Source: a virus. Taken from it: a stretch of 10,960 nucleotides of DNA. This document shows, in pieces, positions 1 to 10,734 of the stretch. Made by a program: the position numbers and the translations under genes. The notes under the pieces were generated by a model, which did not search any database, was not told the DNA's origin, and was given only the letters and a program-made list of their open reading frames with translations. The stretch is from the UHGV virus genome UHGV-2137483. One strand, 5' to 3'. Every line of letters starts with the position of its first letter. The first letter of the stretch is position 1.

Positions 1-1
1 G

Positions 2-589
2 GTCGATGGCCTGAACTTTGCTGCTCAGTATCAGGGTAAAAATGACCGCACTGACGTAACTGAAGCCAATGGTGATGGTTTCGGTTTCTCCACTACTTAT
101 GAGTATGAAGGATTCGGCGTGGGTGCAACCTATGCTAAATCAGATCGCACTGACGGTCAGGTCGCCTATGGTAAGAGCAAATTCAATGCCTCCGGCAAAA
201 ATGCGGAAGTATGGGCTGCAGGCCTGAAATATGATGCGAACAATATCTATCTGGCTACCACATATTCTGAAACTCAGAATATGACCGTTTTTGGTAATAA
301 CCATATTGCAAACAAAGCACAAAACTTTGAAGCAGTAGCACAATATCAGTTTGACTTCGGTCTGCGTCCATCTGTTGCTTACCTTCAGTCAAAAGGTAAA
401 GACCTTGGTGTTCATGGTGACCGAGACTTAGTCAAGTATGTCGATGTCGGTGCTACTTACTACTTTAATAAAAACATGTCCACTTTTGTTGATTACAAAA
501 TCAACTTAATTGACGATAGTAAGTTTACCAAAACAGCTGGTATTGATACCGACGACATCGTCGCTGTAGGTCTGGTTTATCAGTTCTAA
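2..589 (+). CDS. nmpC: outer-membrane porin, OmpC/NmpC family, C-terminal ~195 codons (5' end lies outside the window)
   Basis: Frame is open from position 2 to TAA at 587-589. Translation shows alternating beta-strand pattern and ends in the classic porin C-terminus ...[12 protein letters not shown]. Convergent with Q, as in DLP12-type prophages. Symbol is tentative. Confidence 0.7.
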
Positions 590-610
590 TCTGACTTACG
601 AAAAAGATAT

Positions 611-636
611 GTTGCGGGAGGCTTTGCCTCCGCAAC
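611..636 (-). terminator. long imperfect hairpin, candidate minus-strand terminator downstream of Q (tR'-like)
   Basis: gttgcgggaggc / ttt / gcctccgcaac: about 11 bp stem with a one-base bulge. On the minus strand a T5 run (601-605) follows after a 5-nt spacer, so geometry is not canonical. Confidence 0.3.
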
Positions 637-727
637 ATATAAGTGGAGCCCTCAAGCCACTTCCTTTAGAAGCACTACCTTGCTTCTTACTATATAAACC
701 TTCTGTTATATATTACCCTTTATTTTG

Positions 728-751
728 GGGGCGTTTCCACGCCCCATTTTT
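728..751 (+). terminator. intrinsic terminator-like hairpin plus T-run
   Basis: ggggcg (728-733) / loop tttcca / cgcccc (740-745), followed by ttttt (747-751). Lies between the porin stop and the Q stop. Confidence 0.4.
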
Positions 752-777
752 AATAACTTTTAGTAAACAATTGCATA

Positions 778-1161
778 TCAATTAGAATTATTAGCAACGA
801 TATCCATATCTAACCGGATATCTAATGCCATTAACATCCCTTCAATTATGCCCTCAGCCTTCTGTAACCTTTTCCCGATATAACCATCCGAGCAGCAATG
901 CTTACTTGCCAGTGACATGAATGTCATACCACATACATAATAATCTACTAATAAATCGTGTAAATCGCTGTTGTTCTTTTTCAGACGGGCCATGCACCCG
1001 CAAATGATCATCGCGTCATCGTCACAACATTGCGGGCGAGATTTTACTTTTGAAGGAATTAATCCCTTAAAACCGGCGGCAATGGACGACCAGGTCACAT
1101 CTTCATGATTATTAGCCGCCCACGCACCCCAACGCTCAAGAACCATCTGAATATCACGCAT
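778..1161 (-). CDS. Q: late-gene antitermination protein Q (QuuD / phage 82 type)
   Basis: Translation [26 protein letters not shown]...[18 protein letters not shown]... matches the Q antiterminator family as I recall it. ATG at 1161-1159 is preceded by GGAG with a 7-nt spacer; the ORF-track TTG start at 1176 is probably too far upstream. Confidence 0.85.
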
Positions 1162-1246
1162 CAACTTACTCCACAAAAATCAGACCAGAACGCCAATTAC
1201 AAGCAAAAATCAACAAAACAGTATTAGTTGATTGTTATCTCTGACT

Positions 1247-1387
1247 TCATACTCCTGTTCCTGTCAGGGTTTTGGCGTAATTCTTCAGTATTCGGTAATC
1301 GGTCAAAACAGAACCGAGGAAACGATATAAGCGCAGACGCCCCCAGCGGTGGCGAAGAAGTTCTGCCATATTAAACTCAAACATCAT
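1247..1387 (-). CDS. ylcG: small DLP12-type prophage protein YlcG (46 aa)
   Basis: Below the ORF-track length cutoff. Translation [46 protein letters not shown]. Its ATG overlaps the rusA stop (ATGA at 1384-1387). Confidence 0.55.
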
Positions 1388-1746
1388 TCATTCCCCATTT
1401 CGGTGATGGTCAGTTCCAGCCTCCCACCTTTGGTAACAGGCATCTTCACAACGCGGTAATCAACGACCTGAGCATCATCCAGCCAGAAACCTGCTTTAGT
1501 GAGTGCGTCAAAAGCGGCTTTTTGCAGATTATCCAGGTCACGGCGACGGCGATCCGGCATGTGGCACTCAATGCGGATTTTCACAGGCATAGCCAGGCCG
1601 ATATCCAGCATTGCGTTTTTAATGATTCGGGCGACGTTATCGCGGTATGCCTGCCCCTCTGCGCTGACGTGCGTGCGCCCGCGATTATGGCGGTAATAGC
1701 GATTATTGCTCGGAGGCCAGGGTAATGTGATGCTGTAGGTATTCAC
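1384..1746 (-). CDS. rusA: Holliday-junction resolvase RusA
   Basis: Full-length translation [34 protein letters not shown]... matches RusA as I recall it. Start codon is GTG (1746-1744), overlapping the upstream stop as GTGA. Confidence 0.9.
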
Positions 1747-1871
1747 GCCTTAATAACCCCCTCTTTCAGCCACATAACCTGTGTTCTCGCCATACCTTCC
1801 AGCGCGCATTCTTTTGCATATGCAGCATCGACTTGCTTGGCATGCCCTTTACCGGCAATCTTCTGTATGCG
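1746..1871 (-). pseudogene. ybcO: 3' remnant of a ybcO-like (DUF1364) nin-region gene
   Basis: In-frame translation ...[32 protein letters not shown] matches the YbcO C-terminus from memory. The frame is closed upstream by TAG at 1874-1872 and no frame encodes a YbcO-like N-terminus. Confidence 0.45.
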
Positions 1872-1952
1872 CTAAACCTAGATAGAATCCACTCTGTGCA
1901 CATTGAAGCCCGCTCTATGCTTTCTTTCAGGTATTGAAGGGATTGAGATGGG

Positions 1953-2300
1953 CTAAGCATTATTGGCCTCCTGCATCAGGAGAAAGACAATCATGGCGGC
2001 GCGGAGAGGTCTGGTATCAAATATTGGGCTTACGCCTTTTGCATCCACACACCATTCAGTTAACTGGTCTAAGATAGAAATCCTGTATTTCTCAATAATC
2101 GGCCATGAAGCGCTCGGATCATTGCAGTAGTCAGGCAAATGATTTAATGGCTCAAAAGTTGTATCAGCATTTCCGTAATACCATTTGTTGGTGTTATTCC
2201 CTGATGTTTCCGGTTTACTTGCCCAAAGGCCTTTAAAAATTATGTCTCCTACCATTCTGTTAATTTCAAAATCACTTAACTGTGAATAATCCATTGTCAT
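1953..2300 (-). CDS. hypothetical nin-region phage protein (~115 aa)
   Basis: [39 protein letters not shown].... ATG at 2300-2298 overlaps the ninE stop (ATGA); a second ATG follows at 2294. Family not recognised with confidence. Confidence 0.6.
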
Positions 2301-2473
2301 TTCCTCGCACGATATCTTAGCCACCGGATATCCCACAGGTGGGCTGTGTAATTGAAGGTTTTTACGTCAGATTCTTTTGGGATTAGCTTGCGTTTATTTC
2401 TGGAGCGTTTCGTTGGAAGGTATTTGCAGTTTTCGCAGATTATGTCGGTGATGCTTCGTCGCTGTCGTCTCAT
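2297..2473 (-). CDS. ninE: NinE
   Basis: Translation [58 protein letters not shown] matches lambda NinE as recalled. ATG overlaps the methyltransferase stop (ATGA at 2470-2473). The ORF-track N-terminal extension is rejected. Confidence 0.75.
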
Positions 2474-2997
2474 GCAGCCCTCCTGACGCCCTGCCCGATC
2501 GCCATCAATGCCGCTTTGGATACGGTAGTAAACATCCGTCGAGGACTGATGAACGGTCGCCAAATCAGCAGCATGGAGCCTTTGCTGTTTCCCTTCTTCT
2601 CCAGCCCTGTCGATGGTTCGATAAAATTAATCCGTCCATCAGTGATAATACGAACTTCGTCAACACTCTCCAGAGCCTTGCTGAACCATCCGACAGACAT
2701 ATCCTCTGGCACAAGCATCACTACCGTCTGTCGCTGTTGTATACACTGCTCAGCGGCTTTTTCCACCCACGGCCTGATATTGCTGTACGGTGGGTTATTC
2801 CAGATTGCACCGTGGCTTACCCACTCAGAATTGAGCGCGTCGTCGTCCTCAGTTAGCCAGTGAGCGCACAGAGCATTTTTGTCGCTCGCTGCCGAATCCA
2901 GCCAGAATCCAAACTCAATATCCAGTGCATCAAAAAGCCAAAGCGGCGTTTGCCAGCAGTCCTTGTCGTGTGCTGGCGTATTTGATTTGATAGTCAT
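2470..2997 (-). CDS. phage orphan DNA N6-adenine methyltransferase (Dam-like)
   Basis: Translation [26 protein letters not shown]... contains the catalytic NPPY motif (..[10 protein letters not shown]..) and the N-terminal WQTP block typical of phage Dam-type enzymes. ATG at 2997-2995 overlaps the ninB stop (ATGA). Confidence 0.85.
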
Positions 2998-3434
2998 GCA
3001 GCCCGATCTCCCCATCGCGCTTTCCATTCGAGAGCCAGTCGCGCTTCGTCTGACCACTTAACGCCACGCTCTGTACCGAATGCCTGTATAAGCTCTAATA
3101 GCTCCGCAAATTCGCTTACACGCATCCTGCTGGTTGACTGGCCTATTACCACAAAGCCATTCCCGGCAAGGTTAGGAACAACATCCTGCTGCTTTAATGC
3201 TGCGGTAAACACACACTTCCAGCTTTCTGCATCCAGCCAGCGACCATGCCATTCAACCTGACGAGAGACGTCACCTAAGCAGGCCCATAGCTTCCTGTTT
3301 TGGTCTAAGCTGCGGTTGCGTTCCTGAATGGTTACTACGATTGGTTTGGTTGGGTCTGGAAGGATTTGCTGTACTGCGTGAATAGCGTTTTGCTGATGTG
3401 CCGGAGATCGAATTTCAAAGGTTAGTTTTTTCAT
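2994..3434 (-). CDS. ninB: recombination protein NinB (Orf)
   Basis: Translation MKKLTFEIRSPAHQQNAIHAVQQILPDPTKPIVVTIQERNRSLDQNRKLWACLGDV... is near-identical to lambda NinB as recalled. ATG at 3434-3432 follows a G-rich Shine-Dalgarno. Confidence 0.9.
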   Translation of the reverse strand: MKKLTFEIRSPAHQQNAIHAVQQILPDPTKPIVVTIQERNRSLDQNRKLWACLGDVSRQVEWHGRWLDAESWKCVFTAALKQQDVVPNLAGNGFVVIGQSTSRMRVSEFAELLELIQAFGTERGVKWSDEARLALEWKARWGDRAA

Positions 3435-3450
3435 GACTTCCCTCTCCCCC

Positions 3451-3482
3451 AAATAAAAAGGCCTGCGATTACCTGCAGGCCT
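3451..3482 (-). terminator. intrinsic terminator between ren and ninB (tR2-like)
   Basis: 8-bp perfect stem aggcctgc (3459-3466) / gcaggcct (3475-3482) with an 8-nt loop. On the minus strand it is followed by a T-rich run (complement of aaataaaaa, 3451-3459). Confidence 0.6.
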
Positions 3483-3507
3483 GTTATTAGCTCAGTGATG
3501 TAGATGG

Positions 3508-3798
3508 TCATCTTTTAACTCCATATACCGCCAATATCCGTTTCATCGTGGCACTCTGGCGACACTCCTTAAAAATCAGGTTCGTGCTCATCTTTCCTTC
3601 CCGTTCTTCCTTGGTAGCAAACCGGTAATACACCGTTCGCCAGACCTTACCTTCGATAACCAGAAGACCTGCCCGTGCCATTTTAGCCGCGGCCTGATTT
3701 ATGCTGGTTACTGTTGCGCCTGTTAGCGCGGCAACGTCCGGCGCACAGAAGCTATTATGCGTCCCCAGGTAATGAATAATTGCCTCTTTGCCCGTCAT
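3508..3798 (-). CDS. ren: Ren
   Basis: 96-aa translation MTGKEAIIHYLGTHNSFCAPDVAALTGATVTSINQAAAKMARAGLLVIEGKVWRTVYYRFATKEEREGKMSTNLIFKECRQSATMKRILAVYGVKR matches lambda Ren as recalled. ATG overlaps the P stop (ATGA). Confidence 0.85.
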   Translation of the reverse strand: MTGKEAIIHYLGTHNSFCAPDVAALTGATVTSINQAAAKMARAGLLVIEGKVWRTVYYRFATKEEREGKMSTNLIFKECRQSATMKRILAVYGVKR

Positions 3799-4496
3799 AC
3801 ACTTGCTCCTTTCAGTCCTAACTTAGCTTTAATTTCTGCGATCTTCGCCAGCGCCTGAACACGATTTAGAGGTCTGCCGCCCATGACAGGAAGTTGTTTT
3901 ACTGGTTCAGGTATCGTCTCACCACGGTTAATTCGCGCTGTCATACAGGTCAGTTCATCGGCAGCCTTGCGTCGTAATTCCGCGTCAGTCAGCGCATTGG
4001 CCCGCATGTTCTGGTACAGGTTGGTAACCAGCCAGTAGTGCGCGTTCGATTTCCACGGATAAGACTCTGCATCCGGATACAGGCCTCGCTTCCGGCAATA
4101 CTCGTAAACCATATCAACCAGCTCGCTGACGTTTGGCAGTCCGGCGATAACGGATGCTTCTTCCCGGCACCATGCAACAAACTGCCCGGGTGATGGCAGA
4201 AATGGTCGATTCTGCCGACGGGCTACGCGCATTCCTGCGTTAACCTGTTCCATTGTGGTGATCCCGTTTTCCCGGAAAGCCAGAACCCACTGGCGGCGGA
4301 TTTCGTTCAGTTCGTTCTGGTCACGGTTAGCCAGACTCGCCGGGAAAGTTGCCAGTAACTGGCTGAACACACCGTTGATGATCTGCGCTACCTGCTGTAC
4401 CTGCGGCTTTTCGTCGTACTGTTCCGGCATGTTGTTGGCGATCCGACGCATCTGCTCACGGTCAAAATTAACCATCTGTGCGGCGATGTTTTTCAT
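3795..4496 (-). CDS. P: replication protein P (DnaB helicase loader)
   Basis: 233-aa translation MKNIAAQMVNFDREQMRRIANNMPEQYDEKPQVQQVAQIINGVF... is near-identical to lambda P as recalled. ATG overlaps the O stop (ATGA). Confidence 0.95.
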   Translation of the reverse strand: MKNIAAQMVNFDREQMRRIANNMPEQYDEKPQVQQVAQIINGVFSQLLATFPASLANRDQNELNEIRRQWVLAFRENGITTMEQVNAGMRVARRQNRPFLPSPGQFVAWCREEASVIAGLPNVSELVDMVYEYCRKRGLYPDAESYPWKSNAHYWLVTNLYQNMRANALTDAELRRKAADELTCMTARINRGETIPEPVKQLPVMGGRPLNRVQALAKIAEIKAKLGLKGASV

Positions 4497-5392
4497 AAAT
4501 CCACCCCGTAAATCCAGTCAGTGTTTGTCAGGTCGAGTTTTGGTTTGCAGGCTGTCACACCTGCCTGTTGCTTGTTACGGTTGATTTCGAGCTGGGTCCA
4601 CTTGTCGCGGAGTTTGGCCGGGCTCAGCACGTTACCGGACCAGAAGTTGTCCTGGCATGCCCAGCGGAACAGTACACACATGTCGCGATGGTTACGTCCG
4701 TCACGTTCACGCATCAGGCGGATATCGTTAGCCCACCCTGCAAAATTCGGTTTTCTGGCTGATGGCGCGATGGTCTTCACCATGTCAAACATCCATTCTG
4801 CGGCGGTCAGGTCTTCTGCTGTCCCCCACTTGCTGCCGCTCTGAATTGCAGCATCCGGTTTCACCACAGAAAGGTCGTTTTCTGGCTGGTCAGAGGATTC
4901 GCCAGAATTCTCTGACGAATAATCTTTTCTTTTTTCTTTTGTAATAGTGTCTTTTGTGTCCCCCTGTTTTGAGGGATAGCAATCCCCCAATTTGAGGGAT
5001 GTTTTATCCCTCGTTTTAGGGGATTTTCCCTCGTTTTGAGGGATACACCATTCTGAGATGTTTTTATTTGGTCCAAACATGCCGCCTTGCTGCTTGATAA
5101 TATTCATTCTGACGAGTTCTAACTTGGCTTCATTGCACCGTTTGACGGGTAACTTTGTAATCTCGCTAAGTTGAGAATCGGTGATTCTGTCCATTGGTTT
5201 ATTCCATCCATAGGTTTTACGCAGAATGGCAAGCAGCACTTTAAACTGTCGCTTGGTCAGATCTGCGCCTGAATAAGCCTCAAGCAGCATATTTGATAGT
5301 CTGGCGTAACCATCATCGAGATCTGCCACATTACGCTCCTGTTTGGCAAAGTTACCTCTGCAGAAGTTGAGTATTTTTGCTGTATTTGTCAT
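4493..5392 (-). CDS. O: replication initiator O
   Basis: 299-aa translation MTNTAKILNFCRGNFAKQERNVADLDDGYARLSNMLLEAYSGADLTKRQFKVLLAILRKTYGWNKP... matches lambda O as recalled. The ori iterons lie inside the gene, as in lambda. Confidence 0.95.
   Translation of the reverse strand: MTNTAKILNFCRGNFAKQERNVADLDDGYARLSNMLLEAYSGADLTKRQFKVLLAILRKTYGWNKPMDRITDSQLSEITKLPVKRCNEAKLELVRMNIIKQQGGMFGPNKNISEWCIPQNEGKSPKTRDKTSLKLGDCYPSKQGDTKDTITKEKRKDYSSENSGESSDQPENDLSVVKPDAAIQSGSKWGTAEDLTAAEWMFDMVKTIAPSARKPNFAGWANDIRLMRERDGRNHRDMCVLFRWACQDNFWSGNVLSPAKLRDKWTQLEINRNKQQAGVTACKPKLDLTNTDWIYGVDL
4915..5043. repeat. ori-lambda-type replication origin: four ~18-bp iterons plus adjacent AT-rich region, inside O
   Basis: Four tandem copies of tCCCyc-N-ttGAGGGA at about 4959-4976, 4982-4999, 5006-5023 and 5027-5043. 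The AT-rich tract gaataatcttttcttttttcttttgtaatagtgtcttttgtg lies at 4915-4958. Confidence 0.85.
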
Positions 5393-5401
5393 AATGACTC
5401 C

Positions 5402-5478
5402 TGTGGATTGATCCAGTAATGACCTCAGAATTCCATCTGGATTTGTTCAGAACGCTCGGTTGCCGCCGGGCGTTTTTT
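5402..5478 (+). ncRNA. oop: oop antisense RNA with promoter pO and terminator
   Basis: Terminator at 5453-5478: cgctcgg / ttgccg / ccgggcg then tttttt, which I recall as the lambda oop terminator. Candidate promoter TTGAGT (5367-5372), 17-bp spacer, CATAAT (5390-5395) gives a ~77-nt RNA antisense to the cII 3' end. The 5' end is an estimate. Confidence 0.65.
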
Positions 5479-5716
5479 ATTGGTGAGTCCATCAAGCGCA
5501 TACTTAAAAGCCCTGCTAACTGATGTCTGATGCCATTCCGAAAGCACACAAGACCGAAGCAATAAATCTCCAGTCCGTTCTGCTTATCTTCGATTCATGA
5601 CAGCCAATCATCTTTGCCAGACCGCGCTGGGTAATAGCTGACAGATTGATAAGTAAATCTGTTTCTGCGCGATCAACGTCACGCTGTGATAGTTTGCTGT
5701 AACTTGTTCTTTCCAT
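5425..5716 (-). pseudogene. cII: cII-like transcriptional activator, reading frame broken by a frameshift
   Basis: From ATG 5716-5714 the frame reads MERTSYSKLSQRDVDRAETDLLINLSAITQRGLAKMIGCHESKISRTDWRFIASVLCAFGMASDIS then stops. The +1 frame continues ...EWHQTSVSRAFKYALDGLTNKKRPAATERSEQIQMEF to TGA at 5427-5425; the last ~20 residues equal the lambda cII C-terminus as recalled. Confidence 0.6.
5694..5707 (+). promoter_or_regulatory. candidate CII-binding repeat of a pRE-like promoter (TTGC-N6-TTGT)
   Basis: ttgc tgtaac ttgt lies antisense within the first codons of cII, the position of pRE in lambda. No convincing -10 element was found. Confidence 0.3.
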
Positions 5717-5801
5717 TTCTTAAGATTTCCAATAGTGAATAGTTAGTTGAAAGGTATGCGTGGAAACGCATATGGCCTTAGTTGGTCAGATATCTTGGAA
5801 C

Positions 5802-5847
5802 TCGCTTTTCAGCGACGTAGGACGAATGTCCGTTGTTACAAAGAGCG
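5802..5847 (-). promoter_or_regulatory. nutR (boxA plus boxB hairpin)
   Basis: Minus strand reads CGCTCTTT (boxA, 5847-5840), 24 nt, then tcgc-tgaaaa-gcga hairpin (boxB, 5815-5802). Almost the same arrangement recurs at nutL. Confidence 0.55.
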
Positions 5848-5857
5848 GATCCGCTTA

Positions 5858-6073
5858 TTAAGCGGCTTTGTGTTCCGGCGGGAACACGTCATCAAGACTG
5901 ACTTTTGCGCCTAACTTGTTTAGGCACGCAACAAGAGCACGGCATGTTTTAAGGTCTGGGAAGCGACGACCAGATTCCCAATGTCCGATAGCTCCCTGTG
6001 TGCATCCAACTGCCTTAGCAAGTGTTGTTTGAGAGATATTCAGTGACTCTCGATATTTTCGTAGGTTGCTCAT
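5858..6073 (-). CDS. cro: Cro-like HTH repressor (71 aa)
   Basis: Translation MSNLRKYRESLNISQTTLAKAVGCTQGAIGHWESGRRFPDLKTCRALVACLNKLGAKVSLDDVFPPEHKAA. ATG at 6073-6071 is preceded by GGAGGG (6082-6077). Divergent from cI across the operator region; the ORF-track 128-aa extension is rejected. Confidence 0.8.
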   Translation of the reverse strand: MSNLRKYRESLNISQTTLAKAVGCTQGAIGHWESGRRFPDLKTCRALVACLNKLGAKVSLDDVFPPEHKAA

Positions 6074-6100
6074 ATGCCCTCCATAGTAAACACGAATAAA

Positions 6101-6150
6101 AAAATACAATATGTACTTTGCGAATACAAGTAAAAATACACATTGTGCAT
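6101..6150. promoter_or_regulatory. OR operator region with candidate PR (minus strand) and PRM
   Basis: Minus-strand PR candidate: -35 TTGTAT (complement of 6124-6129), 17-bp spacer, -10 TATTTT (complement of 6101-6106). Operator-like element tacaatatgtactt at 6105-6118 and a related tacacattgtgcat at 6137-6150. The same element recurs at OL. Confidence 0.5.
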
Positions 6151-6190
6151 GGATGGTTCCAGTACAGAGCGTAATAATAAGGACATGAAA

Positions 6191-6844
6191 ATGAAATGGT
6201 ATGAACTGGCTAGATCCAGAATGAAAGAGCTCGGCATAACTCAAGAGAAGTTAGCCGAAGAGCTAGGTATGACGCAGGGTGGGATTGGACACTGGTTGCG
6301 CGGATCTCGTCATCCATCTCTTAGTGATATTGGTGTGGTGTTTAAATACCTTGGTATTGATAACATATCATTCAACCACGACGGGACATTTTCACCTGTT
6401 GGCGAATACTCATCGGCCCCAGTTAAAAAACAATATGAGTACCCTGTTTTTTCTCATGTTCAGGCTGGGATGTTCTCTCCAGAACTCAGAACCTTTACCA
6501 AAGGCGATACGGAGAGATTGGTAAGCACAACCAAAAAAGCCAGTGACTCTGCATTCTGGCTTGAGGTTGAAGGTAACTCAATGACCGCACCAACAGGTTC
6601 CAAACCCAGCTTTCCTGACGGGATGTTAATTCTGGTTGACCCTGAGCAAGCTGTTGAGCCCGGCGATTTCTGCATAGCCAGACTTGGTGGTGATGAATTT
6701 ACCTTCAAGAAACTGATCAGGGATAGCGGTCAGGTGTTTCTACAGCCACTAAACCCACAATACCCAATGATCCCATGCAATGAGAGTTGTTCCGTTGTGG
6801 GGAAAGTTATCGCCAGCCAATGGCCTGAAGAGACGTTTGGGTGA
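6191..6844 (+). CDS. cI: CI prophage repressor: non-lambda HTH N-terminal domain, lambda-like S24 autocleavage C-terminal domain
   Basis: C-terminal ~130 residues ([26 protein letters not shown]...[90 protein letters not shown]) match lambda cI as recalled. N-terminal HTH ([23 protein letters not shown]) is different. Start is uncertain: ATG 6191 follows AAGGA by 7 nt; alternatives at 6185, 6149 and TTG 6143. Confidence 0.9.
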
Positions 6845-6883
6845 TGAAACCACTTTTATCTACAATTTACAGGGCGGTAAACA

Positions 6884-7441
6884 TTGGCAAAAATAGATGA
6901 TTATCAGCCAAGCCAAGTAGAAGTTGATAAAGTACTTTATTGTAAAAAAATAGTTAACTTTTCTGGCGTTAAATGGAAACAGAAACCAAGTCGCTCTGAT
7001 ATGTGGCTACAAGCCCATATCATCCCCTTGGATGAGGATTGTATACCTATACAAGGGCTAAAGTTTGAACTGAAATGGAAACCAGATCAGGATTCAGAAC
7101 CTGATGACCCGATTTCTTACCCTAAAATAAATATTATTGCTTTCTATCATAACAAGAGGGTTTTCGCGGTAGATACCTATCACTTTGACAAACACACGAA
7201 TAGTTACAAGGTCGATCATCCGAAGTACCAAGATATCATTTACGGTGCTCACTACCATGTATACTATGAAGAAGCTGGATACTATAGTGATAGAATAGCG
7301 TTTCCAATCGAAGATGACATAAACCCAGATGACCTGGTAGGGTATTGGAATTACTTCTGTAAACATCTGAACATAACTTACTCTGGGAGAATACCTTTAC
7401 CGCTTGAAGATGAGTCGGGGCAAATGGGGTTTGGAATATGA
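6884..7441 (+). CDS. hypothetical protein, gene A of a two-gene cassette in the rexAB slot (185 aa if TTG start)
   Basis: ORF begins 39 nt after the cI stop with no intervening hairpin. First in-frame start is TTG 6884; the first ATG is at codon 40 (7001). No hydrophobic transmembrane stretch is evident. Contains a His/Tyr-rich segment (GAHYHVYYEEAGYY). Visibly AT-rich. No family recognised. Confidence 0.65.
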   Translation: MAKIDDYQPSQVEVDKVLYCKKIVNFSGVKWKQKPSRSDMWLQAHIIPLDEDCIPIQGLKFELKWKPDQDSEPDDPISYPKINIIAFYHNKRVFAVDTYHFDKHTNSYKVDHPKYQDIIYGAHYHVYYEEAGYYSDRIAFPIEDDINPDDLVGYWNYFCKHLNITYSGRIPLPLEDESGQMGFGI

Positions 7442-8190
7442 TGTGCTCAACAGTGATCTCACAACTAGGTTTCGAATGCCATCCAATAGGCAAGACCTTG
7501 AGAATTATCAGTCCATTCACTTACTGTGATGATGGAGAGCATGTCGGTGCCTTTATCCGTGAAGTCAATGGTAGGTATTTAGTTAGTGACAGATGCGATG
7601 CCTTAATGAATATGGAGGCAAGAGGGATCTCGCTTACCAAAAAACGACTTGATGAGATACGACAATTACTGCTTAAAGAAGGCGCAGAACTCAATGCTCG
7701 AGGAGAAATCATTGCTTGGGCAACAGAAAAGGATGTCGGTGCGATTACATCGAACATAATTAGAGCTGGTATACTCGCATCAACTTTGTCGTTAGACTGG
7801 TATCAGCCAGTTCAAGCTGAAAAGTTTGAAAGTATGGTTATTGATTATCTATATCACACAGAGCTTAGAGACGCACTTTCTCTTCGTGAAAACGTATATG
7901 GCTTGAGTGGACATCAAATTACCGTCCCTGTAACAATAAAAACCGACATACCTAAATACGTTTTTACATCAAGCGTGAAACACGGAGGAAGCTGGAATAG
8001 TGCTTACTCATTGCTTGGGAAACTAATTGATCTTAAAGCTTCAAGTGAGGAGTATAACAACAGATTTGTTGTTATAGACAGCGAAGCAATTGGTGATCAA
8101 ATGCAACAACTCTCCTTACTCTTCCATGAATCAAGCCAAGTTCTACCATTCTCCAAAAGAGAGACTTGGGTTAAGAGACTTGCAGCATAA
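7438..8190 (+). CDS. hypothetical protein, gene B of the cassette (250 aa)
   Basis: ATG 7438 overlaps the gene A stop (ATGA, 7438-7441), indicating translational coupling. Long uninterrupted ORF ending TAA 8188-8190, immediately before a strong terminator. No obvious transmembrane segment. No family recognised. Confidence 0.75.
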   Translation: MMCSTVISQLGFECHPIGKTLRIISPFTYCDDGEHVGAFIREVNGRYLVSDRCDALMNMEARGISLTKKRLDEIRQLLLKEGAELNARGEIIAWATEKDVGAITSNIIRAGILASTLSLDWYQPVQAEKFESMVIDYLYHTELRDALSLRENVYGLSGHQITVPVTIKTDIPKYVFTSSVKHGGSWNSAYSLLGKLIDLKASSEEYNNRFVVIDSEAIGDQMQQLSLLFHESSQVLPFSKRETWVKRLAA

Positions 8191-8193
8191 TAC

Positions 8194-8220
8194 AACCCGG
8201 CCTCAGCGCCGGGTTTTCTT
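8194..8220 (+). terminator. intrinsic terminator ending the cI-cassette transcript (tImm-like)
   Basis: aacccggc (8194-8201) / loop ctcagc / gccgggtt (8208-8215), followed by a T-rich tail ttttcttt. Confidence 0.65.
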
Positions 8221-8408
8221 TGCCTCACGTTCGCCCACCTAAAAACACATAACCAATTATATTTATTGAAAAATAAATAGATGCAACCCACTAAACCACG
8301 CAATTCTGATCTCTCCTTACATCGCCGAGGCAATACATCCACGCTAAAAAACAACACTATTAAATACAAAGCGTTATAAAAAACCACGCCAACTTACAAC
8401 AAATTGTA

Positions 8409-8437
8409 TTGATCTTGTAAAGTACATATCGTACTAT
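8409..8437 (+). promoter_or_regulatory. pL candidate with OL operator
   Basis: -35 TTGATC (8409-8414), 17-bp spacer, -10 TACTAT (8432-8437). Palindromic operator AGTACatatcGTACT at 8421-8435 matches the OR element with the same spacing to the -35. Confidence 0.5.
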
Positions 8438-8482
8438 TTAACCGTCAGCAGGACGCTGGAAGCCAAATGGAACAGACTGGCA

Positions 8483-8528
8483 GGCTCTTTAAACAACGTC
8501 GACTCTCGACTACGTGGCTGAAAAGCCA
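8483..8528 (+). promoter_or_regulatory. nutL (boxA plus boxB hairpin)
   Basis: GGCTCTTT (8483-8490), 24 nt, then tggc-tgaaaa-gcca hairpin (8515-8528). Same architecture and spacer landmarks (AACAACG, CTACG) as nutR. Confidence 0.55.
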
Positions 8529-8626
8529 GATCACCCAACCACATAAGCTGTGGGATGCAATGCCGAAGCAACCGTCTCAGGAGGAGCTTCGAGATTGCAT
8601 CGCCAAAGTTTATTCGGGAGGAATCC

Positions 8627-8899
8627 ATGTCCAGAAAAACAGAATTTAAAGGCACCGCAGCTTCTCGCCGTAGAGCTCGTCGCGCAAATCTGCAAAGTCA
8701 GGAGGCGATCAGCTCCGACAAGCTACACAGGCCAACCCCTTCACGAGTGGTCTTGCAATGCAAGCTCAAACCAGCAATGAGAGCAGAAGTGATAACTCTG
8801 ACAACGTTGACCAGAAAATATGAAGGTTCAACTTGTCTTCCGAACGTAGCTCTTTACGCGGCAGGCTACCGGAAATCAAAACAACTGACGGCGAGATGA
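8627..8899 (+). CDS. N: N-like transcription antiterminator (P22 gene-24 type), 90 aa
   Basis: ATG 8627 preceded by GGAGG (8617-8621). N-terminal arginine-rich motif GTAASRRRARRA; C-terminus ...VALYAAGYRKSKQLTAR resembles P22 gene 24 as recalled. The ORF-track upstream extension from 8555 is rejected. Confidence 0.75.
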   Translation: MSRKTEFKGTAASRRRARRANLQSQEAISSDKLHRPTPSRVVLQCKLKPAMRAEVITLTTLTRKYEGSTCLPNVALYAAGYRKSKQLTAR

Positions 8900-8915
8900 T
8901 AAATTCATTTGCTAA

Positions 8916-9532
8916 TTACTTGTTTTTGCCATGCTTATCCTGAGCGATAAGTTCATCCATAAGGCTGTCTGCCTTCCCGGCAAACCTAATGTAGCACTCA
9001 TGTCTATAGCTTTCAGGGATAACGAAACGGTCGGTATCAGGATATCCAACAGCAGGAGGCCTTCGAACGAGGAGTCCTTTTTTGAGCAATGAAATTGATT
9101 CATGAGNNNNNNNNNNNNNNNNNNNNNNNNNNATTCATGAGCGCCCTTTTCCGTTTGTAGCTGGTTATTAGCGGCTACAGCGAATGCCAAATACGCTCTT
9201 TCTCCAAGAGTTAACGAATCAAACAAATCTTGCACATATTTTTCTTCTTTAGATTTGCGCTTCTGAGCAGCGAATACCTCAATTCTTTCAGTCACAGCGT
9301 GATAAGCGGAATTAACAACGCCGTTAAGCACATAGCTAACGCAAAACAACAGGATGTAATACATCCAGTAATGAGGAAGGATTTCTGGACTATGCAGGTT
9401 TATCCATTCTTTTACGCTTACCGGCATAACAATAATCAATATGATCAGGATGATTAGCATATGAATCAACTGTTTAAGTGTCATTCCTTGCAGGAAAAAA
9501 TGCATTAGTTCCTGCCACCATGAGTTGTTCAT
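8916..9532 (-). CDS. sieB: superinfection exclusion protein SieB-like membrane protein, interrupted by an assembly gap
   Basis: N-terminal part MNNSWWQELMHFFLQGMTLKQLIHMLIILIILIIVMPVSV... is hydrophobic. The C-terminal part is in a different frame from the ORF-track call and reads ...HESISLLKKGLLVRRPPAVGYPDTDRFVIPESYRHECYIRFAGKADSLMDELIAQDKHGKNK to TAA 8918-8916. Convergent with N, as lambda sieB. Confidence 0.65.
9107..9132. other. assembly gap (26 N), probably artefactual
   Basis: Run of N. The 9 bases attcatgag occur on both flanks (9098-9106 and 9133-9141). Confidence 0.95.
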
Positions 9533-9675
9533 CGGCGTTTCTCTTTTGCTCTCTGTAGGGGTGAATAGAGTTTATCCGATTTCTCGTTGTAGGGGTACAC
9601 GAGAACCACCGAGCCTGATGTGGTTAAAAGACAGGCACAATCTTTACTACCGCAATCCACTATTTAAGGTGATAT

Positions 9676-10497: not shown

Positions 10498-10569
10498 GCG
10501 CGGCGTTACCGCATACCAATTACGCTTCACTCGAGGCGTTTTTCGTTATGTATAAATAAGGAGCACACC

Positions 10570-10734
10570 ATGCAATATGCCATTGCAGGGTGGCCTGTTG
10601 CTGGCTGCCCTTCCGAATCTTTACTTGAACGAATCACCCGTAAATTACGTGACGGATGGAAACGCCTTATCGACATACTTAATCAGCCAGGAGTCCCAAA
10701 AAATGGATCAAACAATTATGGCTATCCAGACTAA
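10570..10734 (+). CDS. cIII: CIII (FtsH inhibitor, protects CII)
   Basis: Below the ORF-track cutoff. ATG 10570 preceded by AAGGAG. Translation [54 protein letters not shown] matches lambda CIII as recalled. Confidence 0.9.
   Translation: MQYAIAGWPVAGCPSESLLERITRKLRDGWKRLIDILNQPGVPKNGSNNYGYPD

Follow-up and report, generated by a model that had tools for sequence, protein, structure and literature searches.

An exchangeable two-gene cassette in the rexAB position of a lambdoid prophage is a candidate anti-phage module

Background

The rexAB genes of phage lambda, which exclude T4 rII and other phages by abortive infection, constitute the oldest known prophage exclusion system and are still poorly understood. 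They are two co-oriented genes located between the stop codon of the repressor gene cI and the terminator that precedes the left operator (OL), no terminator follows cI, and their expression in the lysogen is presumed. The virus genome UHGV-2137483, analysed here as a stretch of 10,960 nucleotides (hereafter the window), contains the early region of a lambdoid prophage in which the same slot is occupied by two other co-oriented genes, here termed A and B, which likewise follow cI without a terminator and are likewise presumed to be expressed in the lysogen. The two pairs share no sequence or family similarity. A and B are soluble proteins by prediction, whereas RexB is polytopic in the membrane; A-B cannot work by depolarisation, the mechanism ascribed to RexB. 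In contrast to lambda rexAB, the A and B genes overlap by the tetranucleotide ATGA.

Three further systems invite comparison. BstA, which is expressed in lysogens of the Salmonella prophage BTP1 and defends by abortive infection (PMC8585504), is also a cargo encoded directly downstream of the prophage repressor; however, BstA acts on its own as one protein, its self-immunity comes from a DNA element (aba), and it has no homology to A or B. The anti-phage system DS-6/HipAD, which has been validated and for which a toxin-antitoxin-like manner of working has been proposed (PMC13092281), resembles A-B in comprising two genes, the second of which codes for a protein ending in a DUF1829 domain (PDDEXK clan). 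Its partner protein is, however, a HipA-family kinase, to which A is unrelated (no kinase or HipA match was found for A in Pfam), and the N-terminus of DS-6B is a DUF3037 rather than a DUF1828 domain. PDC-M24 belongs to the PDC systems, 145 candidates which were defined by their embedding in BREX, DISARM or type I restriction-modification (RM) loci (Payne et al. 2024 preprint, 10.1101/2024.01.29.577857). It shares with A-B the adjacent arrangement of an A gene followed by a B gene on one strand, but the relation is distant (E ~1e-10 for B; ~1e-4 and partial for A), protein A is longer than PDC-M24A (185 amino acids (aa) against a model of 148 positions), and A-B lies in a prophage immunity region whereas PDC-M24 lies in BREX, DISARM and type I RM loci.

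Results and discussion

Exact replacement of rexAB and exchange of cargo

An earlier note on this DNA had described two open reading frames of about 185 and 250 aa on one strand, starting 39 nucleotides (nt) after the cI stop codon and overlapping by ATGA, and had likened the whole to the cI-rexA-rexB-tImm layout of lambda with other genes. The coordinates were confirmed, in agreement with the RefSeq annotation, and the likeness to lambda proved to extend to the junctions themselves. Nucleotide homology to lambda runs at 93% through the C-terminal S24 half of cI (6434-6845) and ends at position 6845, one base past the stop codon; it returns at 90% at position 8194, which corresponds to lambda position 35826, the rexB stop and tImm terminator. 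The cassette (6846-8193) thus exactly replaces rexA-rexB. Homology at the left junction to lambda, 2G7b, WGPS8 and 2B8 stops within 6842-6846, and the guanine-cytosine content is ~39-41% in the cassette versus 43-47% in the flanks. The cI protein is 70.8% identical to lambda cI at the amino acid level over the aligned region, and its N-terminal DNA-binding part differs, so that by comparison of the two sequences cI is a hybrid gene. Its conserved 3' end is probably the left recombination anchor in cargo exchange.

The same junctions also enclose other genes. In the prophage of E. coli ED1a (CU928162.2), whose cI and Cro are 99.2% and 97% identical to those of lambda, a second allele of the pair is found between them, coding for proteins A' (180 aa) and B' (258 aa) that are ~51% identical to A and B, with an overlap of 13 nt as opposed to 4 nt in the window allele. 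Three unrelated cargoes occupy identical junctions in phages with the window's own immunity region, namely a 283-aa protein in 2G7b and PhiR11_1 (locus L012, 1386-2237), a 173-aa protein in VT2-Sakai and many Shiga toxin (Stx) phages (locus L013, 1789-2310), and a NYN-domain protein in 2B8 (locus L014, 1414-2271). The last of these shows weak HEC-09 and NYN matches in PADLOC; the 283-aa and 173-aa proteins, for which PADLOC gave no match, are themselves further candidates. That the slot is a hotspot for defence cargo, as previously claimed, is supported by these exchanges. Owen et al. 2021 (PMC8585504) likewise portray the region between cI and N as a mosaic hotspot, with rexAB and bstA among its occupants. 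Both the anatomy of the locus and its reading as a hotspot are solid.

Signals in the transcription unit conform to this layout. The terminator scan recovered no terminator in the spacer between cI and A, and the spacer RNA folds no better than shuffled sequences (z +0.58). Downstream of B, by contrast with the spacer, a stem of eight pairs, six of them G-C, is followed by a T-run (stem 8194-8215; -14.6 kcal/mol, z -3.66; none of 200 shuffled sequences reached this stability), and this strong terminator lies just before the operator-like repeats and N. Both observations agree with what had been noticed at the outset. The promoter scan returned five sites where 5.9 were expected by chance, and no internal promoter is claimed; no RNA family of Rfam was matched in or near the cassette. 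The stop codon of A and the start codon of B share the ATGA at 7438-7441. In nine of the ten lineages examined the start codon of A is TTG or GTG, the exception being Thorsellia with ATG. Selection seems to favour the non-ATG start, as would be expected if the level of A has to be kept low. Together with the placement of the B start codon inside the end of A, this start suggests low, coupled expression.

A and B are inherited as one unit

A survey of 102 loci, drawn from species-representative genomes, IMG/VR and assemblies, showed that A immediately precedes B on one strand, in overlapping frames, in every case (102/102). The preceding gene always codes for a repressor, comprising a helix-turn-helix (HTH) domain with or without an S24 peptidase domain, and at a threshold of <50% shared identity the repressors form at least 12 clusters. 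The hosts of the surveyed loci include Aeromonas, Thorsellia, Klebsiella (Rac-like), Providencia, Yersinia, Xenorhabdus and Pantoea. Full-length homologues of both proteins, with identities of 47-84%, occur across the Enterobacterales and Aeromonas, and on such sequence grounds A and B are real genes. Divergence in A goes along with divergence in B (correlation of pairwise identities r = 0.93, 45 unique pairs), and a DUF1828 gene follows even those relatives of A that are most distant (21-26% identity), two of which lie after an S24 repressor and two beside a resolvase. A and B therefore constitute one obligate two-protein unit. The A family is rare, with 20 cluster representatives in 1.84 billion proteins. 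Prophages of Izhakiella and Providencia carry an additional gene for a 113-aa DUF3024 protein (Pfam E 1e-26) between the repressor and A (L015, 5044-5385; L017, 5053-5394; L018, 5052-5393), a further small accessory gene in the A-B transcription unit.

Within E. coli, the window allele is present in 241 of 5,426 complete genomes, among them Nissle 1917, ATCC 25922 and the type strain, while the second allele is found in a further 61, including the O104:H4 outbreak strains. The A-B segment is 100% identical in the temperate phages ev017, ev207, PhiR57_1 and PhiR63_2. Phages carrying the cassette were reportedly isolated by Brenes and Laub in 2025 (Cell Host Microbe). The literature on DUF1828, DUF6978, PDC-M24, both RefSeq protein accessions and the PhiR phages yielded no functional study, the Brenes and Laub work lying outside the coverage of that search, and PDC-M24 is named in no paper found. 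A metagenomic-selection paper (PMC12366544) says nothing of these domains. The 'pr' repressor of Nissle 1917 (Bury et al. 2018, PMC5987069) was considered as a possible earlier description of the A-B locus and rejected, the 410-bp amplicon deriving from another prophage of the strain ('prophage 3').

Predicted features of the two proteins

Neither A nor B matched the RexA or RexB families in Pfam, NCBIfam, PHROGs or PADLOC (E up to 1), and neither contains a membrane segment, the highest Kyte-Doolittle means over 19 residues being 0.45 for A and 1.19 for B; both points had been anticipated by the earlier note. Its statement that neither protein resembles a recognisable family went too far: B contains a Pfam DUF1828 domain above the gathering score, and in PHROGs A and B each belong to a family without assigned function.

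The AlphaFold2 model of A (mean predicted local distance difference test score (pLDDT) 82, predicted template modelling score 0.81) is beta-rich, globular and soluble; it matches no known fold, and no convincing structural relative of the model was found. The residues R92, D97, H104, N106, G121, H123, H125 and E129 are invariant, and the Asp/His/Asn cluster among them looks like a metal or catalytic site. The C-terminal tail of A is conserved yet modelled with low confidence (pLDDT <50 over residues 175-185), pointing to a peptide that binds a partner. Searches of solved-structure sequences with profiles of A and B gave chance matches only, to a designed Kelch-repeat protein (the sum of six weak repeats), to His-tags, to interferon gamma and to enteropeptidase.

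For B, the model (mean pLDDT 84) is likewise globular and soluble, with two domains. The N-terminal domain (aa 1-116) is a DUF1828 domain with a type III secretion chaperone-like fold, matched at 33.5 bits against a Pfam cut-off of 22 over aa 26-110, in which S25-P26, D32, D51, G63 and G89-E90-I91 are kept. The C-terminal domain (aa 128-250) probably corresponds to DUF1829 and has a restriction-endonuclease fold in which the alpha-beta-beta-beta-alpha-beta core of PD-(D/E)xK enzymes is present; an HHpred match to DUF1829 (PDDEXK clan) at residues 155-241 of B is also given in Table S5 of the DefensePredictor study (PMC13092281). Down to 27% identity, this domain keeps S157-G158-H159, D198, R209 and the acidic character of position 214. 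H159 sits where the catalytic D is expected, and K173 and the preceding acidic position vary among distant relatives. In its catalytic triad, which is not conserved, B differs from the CCGG-family endonucleases (PspGI, NgoMIV, Cfr10I) and from Can2/Card1. The sensor domain of Can2/Card1-type fusions is moreover a CARF domain, whereas that of B is type III secretion chaperone/DUF2170-like, and no cyclic-oligonucleotide system was found near A-B.

Links to defence and a proposed mode of action

The only PADLOC families (PADLOC-DB 2.0.0, from 2023) matched by A-B are the two components of PDC-M24. B aligns with PDC-M24B over nearly all of both sequences (E 4.7e-10; aa 2-249 on positions 4-254 of 256), and 27 of 27 B homologues match PDC-M24B at full length with E down to 8e-12. 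The weak match of A to PDC-M24A (E 4.8e-4; aa 104-163 on positions 79-134 of 148) covers the conserved core of A, as does a weak match to DUF6978, and of 15 relatives of A no more than three match any one of the three PDC-M24A models. The machine-learning tool DefensePredictor (Science 2026, PMC13092281) assigned log-odds of 5.64 to WP_000968518.1 (B) and 4.90 to WP_001062368.1 (A), both above its cut-off of 4, and places the two in one operon of an ECOR strain under the label 'Predicted novel defense gene' (PMC13092281). The anti-phage idea for A-B is thus not new, the pair having been flagged by two computational screens. The inference of the earlier note, a new two-component exclusion or abortive-infection system, was only partly right: the two-component unit stood, the novelty only in part, as both genes had already been predicted computationally to be defensive.

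On the strength of the distant homology to PDC-M24 and the machine-learning prediction, a defensive function is likely, and the reading preferred here, at a probability of about 0.55, is that A-B is an anti-phage module which guards the lysogen when other phages superinfect it, acting by abortive infection or in the manner of a toxin-antitoxin pair. Several points weigh against it. PDC-M24 is itself no more than a candidate defence system, and two other PDC candidates gave no defence in tests (PMC12409345). The link of A to PDC-M24A and DUF6978 is weak (E ~2e-4 to 5e-4), under the Pfam gathering score and limited to ~60 residues. The accessions of A and B and their cluster representatives are absent from the 94 units tested in the DefensePredictor study (Tables S6-S8), of which 45% were validated, with a lower rate at low log-odds (PMC13092281). 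Among the distant relatives compared, the canonical D...(D/E)xK triad is not conserved in the endonuclease-fold domain of B. Lastly, co-transcription of A-B with cI from the promoter PRM in the lysogen is presumed solely by analogy with lambda.

If A-B is such a module, A would be made in small amounts because of its TTG or GTG start and weak Shine-Dalgarno sequence, B would be translationally coupled to A via the ATGA, and the two proteins would form a complex. To this complex B would contribute a DUF1828 domain, chaperone-like and binding a peptide or protein, and a DUF1829 domain binding or cutting nucleic acid, while A would contribute the D97/H104/N106/H123/H125/E129 cluster with its resemblance to a metal-dependent catalytic site. 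A phage cue would then release the activity, and either phage replication or the infected cell would be stopped. The complex itself, enzymatic activity of whatever kind and protection against phages by A-B are inferred from the features described above. The roles can be assigned only tentatively; an effector A restrained by B is preferred, and the reverse, in which B is a nuclease effector and A an adaptor or sensor, is almost as likely.

Alternative functions

Within a defensive setting, B may instead be a self-contained sensor-nuclease, its DUF1828 sensor controlling a variant PD-(D/E)xK nuclease that cuts phage DNA, with A as an accessory specificity or anti-toxicity factor. This is a possibility that should be kept in view, albeit a doubtful one. 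DUF1829 belongs to the Pfam PDDEXK clan, the S157-G158-H159, D198 and R209 residues of B and its acidic position 214 are conserved in distant relatives, and sensor-plus-nuclease fusions are common in defence, 13 validated DefensePredictor systems carrying PD-(D/E)xK domains (PMC13092281); yet this conservation does not extend to the D and (D/E)xK of the canonical catalytic motif, and A, which is never absent, has an enzyme-like invariant cluster of its own. A more speculative and rather unlikely variant assigns the sensing to the same domain and the killing to the other protein: DUF1828 would be a receptor for a phage protein or peptide, the binding of which would free A, an enzyme of unseen fold with a D97/H104/N106/H123/H125 site, to abort the infection, and the degenerate endonuclease-fold domain of B would be a DNA-binding platform and no nuclease.

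The alternative that A-B is a toxin-antitoxin or addiction module, which stabilises the prophage or affects host physiology and confers no real phage protection, is improbable. Two small, overlapping and coupled genes that are always co-inherited would suit such a module, as would the weak non-ATG start of the upstream gene, which is also seen in toxin-first toxin-antitoxin pairs. DS-6B of HipAD, the only validated DUF1829 protein, has furthermore been proposed to be an antitoxin-like partner, and the pair has been kept in the truncated, defective prophage of Nissle 1917. However, searches of Pfam, NCBIfam and PADLOC linked neither protein to any toxin or antitoxin family known so far, and A-B swaps with rexAB and NYN-domain cargo at a defence hotspot; many toxin-antitoxin modules also defend, so that the two readings overlap.

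Least probable is a lysogeny-linked regulator of the CI/Cro switch, of induction or of excision/recombination, comparable to the excision-controlling factors XisH/XisI or to RexAB with its reported role in the lysogenic-to-lytic transition. In favour of it are the constant position directly after the repressor in the lambdoid loci (102/102, with at least 12 repressor types), the serine recombinase (resolvase) genes adjoining two distant pairs and a possibly non-catalytic, DNA-binding endonuclease-fold domain in B. Against it, PDC-M24 relatives owe their definition to BREX, DISARM and RM loci, where no repressor is close by, and phages with the same immunity region do without A-B. A partner specific to one repressor is also hard to reconcile with the wide variety of repressors found beside A-B, some of them HTH-only and Rac-like.

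Genomic surroundings of the cassette

Positions 1-9556 of the window are ~99.9-100% identical to the defective prophage adjoining icd in E. coli Nissle 1917. The features of the immunity region are collected in Table 1. The operator-like element between cro and cI is 86% complementary to 8419-8439 and 92% complementary to 8399-8410, and the sequence following the cassette (8194-8315) is 90% identical to the flank of OL in lambda. The Rfam family Lambda_thermo (RF01804, the cIII thermoregulator) was matched at 10557-10615 on the plus strand with 88.5 bits, overlapping the start of a cIII-like open reading frame (10570-10734), and its position confirms that the operon of the promoter pL runs rightward. 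A run of 26 N at 9107-9132 within the sieB-like gene is an assembly gap or masked stretch and has no biological meaning. At the left end, a partial OmpC/NmpC-type porin gene lies beside the Q-type antiterminator gene quuD (119-589, 778-1176), as in the Nissle 1917 prophage; the porin is an accessory gene in the late region.

Table 1. Coordinates of the cassette and its neighbours in the immunity region of the window
Feature	Position	Strand	Remarks
cro-like repressor gene	5858..6073	-	Divergent from cI; 'helix-turn-helix transcriptional regulator' of RefSeq in Nissle 1917; Cro in PhiR57_1/PhiR63_2
Operator-like palindrome in the cro-cI intergenic region (right operator OR, PRM/PR site)	6099..6119		Function inferred from lambda
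cI repressor gene (HTH_3 + Peptidase_S24)	6149..6844	+	Pfam S24 E 1e-28, HTH_3 E 2e-10; RefSeq coding sequence
Spacer between cI and A (39 nt), left cargo-swap junction	6845..6883	+	cI stop codon at 6842-6844
Gene A, 185 aa, TTG start	6884..7441	+	RefSeq WP_001062368.1 in Nissle 1917
Gene B, 250 aa, ATG start within ATGA	7438..8190	+	RefSeq WP_000968518.1 in Nissle 1917
Intrinsic terminator closing cI-A-B, right cargo-swap junction	8194..8222	+	Terminator scan; homologous to the lambda terminator after rexB
Operator-like elements before N (OL/pL region)	8399..8439		Inverted matches to the OR element
N antiterminator gene, first in the pL operon	8627..8899	+	Pfam N_peptide PF25694 E 1e-32; RefSeq coding sequence
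sieB-like gene	8916..9497	-	Downstream of N

Conclusions

As the slot is already known as a hotspot and the genes are already predicted to be defensive, A-B is a well-founded target and comes as no surprise. An unrelated soluble pair replaces rexAB base for base, even behind a cI that is 99% identical to that of lambda, and a clean isogenic comparison in lambda is therefore possible. If A-B alters phage sensitivity in any way, this would bear on phage therapy and on the engineering of probiotic strains. If the defensive function holds true, it would be the first function for DUF1828, for the DUF6978-like family and for PDC-M24. Should DUF1828 prove to be a receptor for a phage protein or peptide, the pair would represent a new type of sensor and a new effector fold in bacterial immunity, and would also explain the wider set of gene pairs in which DUF6978 is joined to DUF1828-DUF1829 (PDC-M24).

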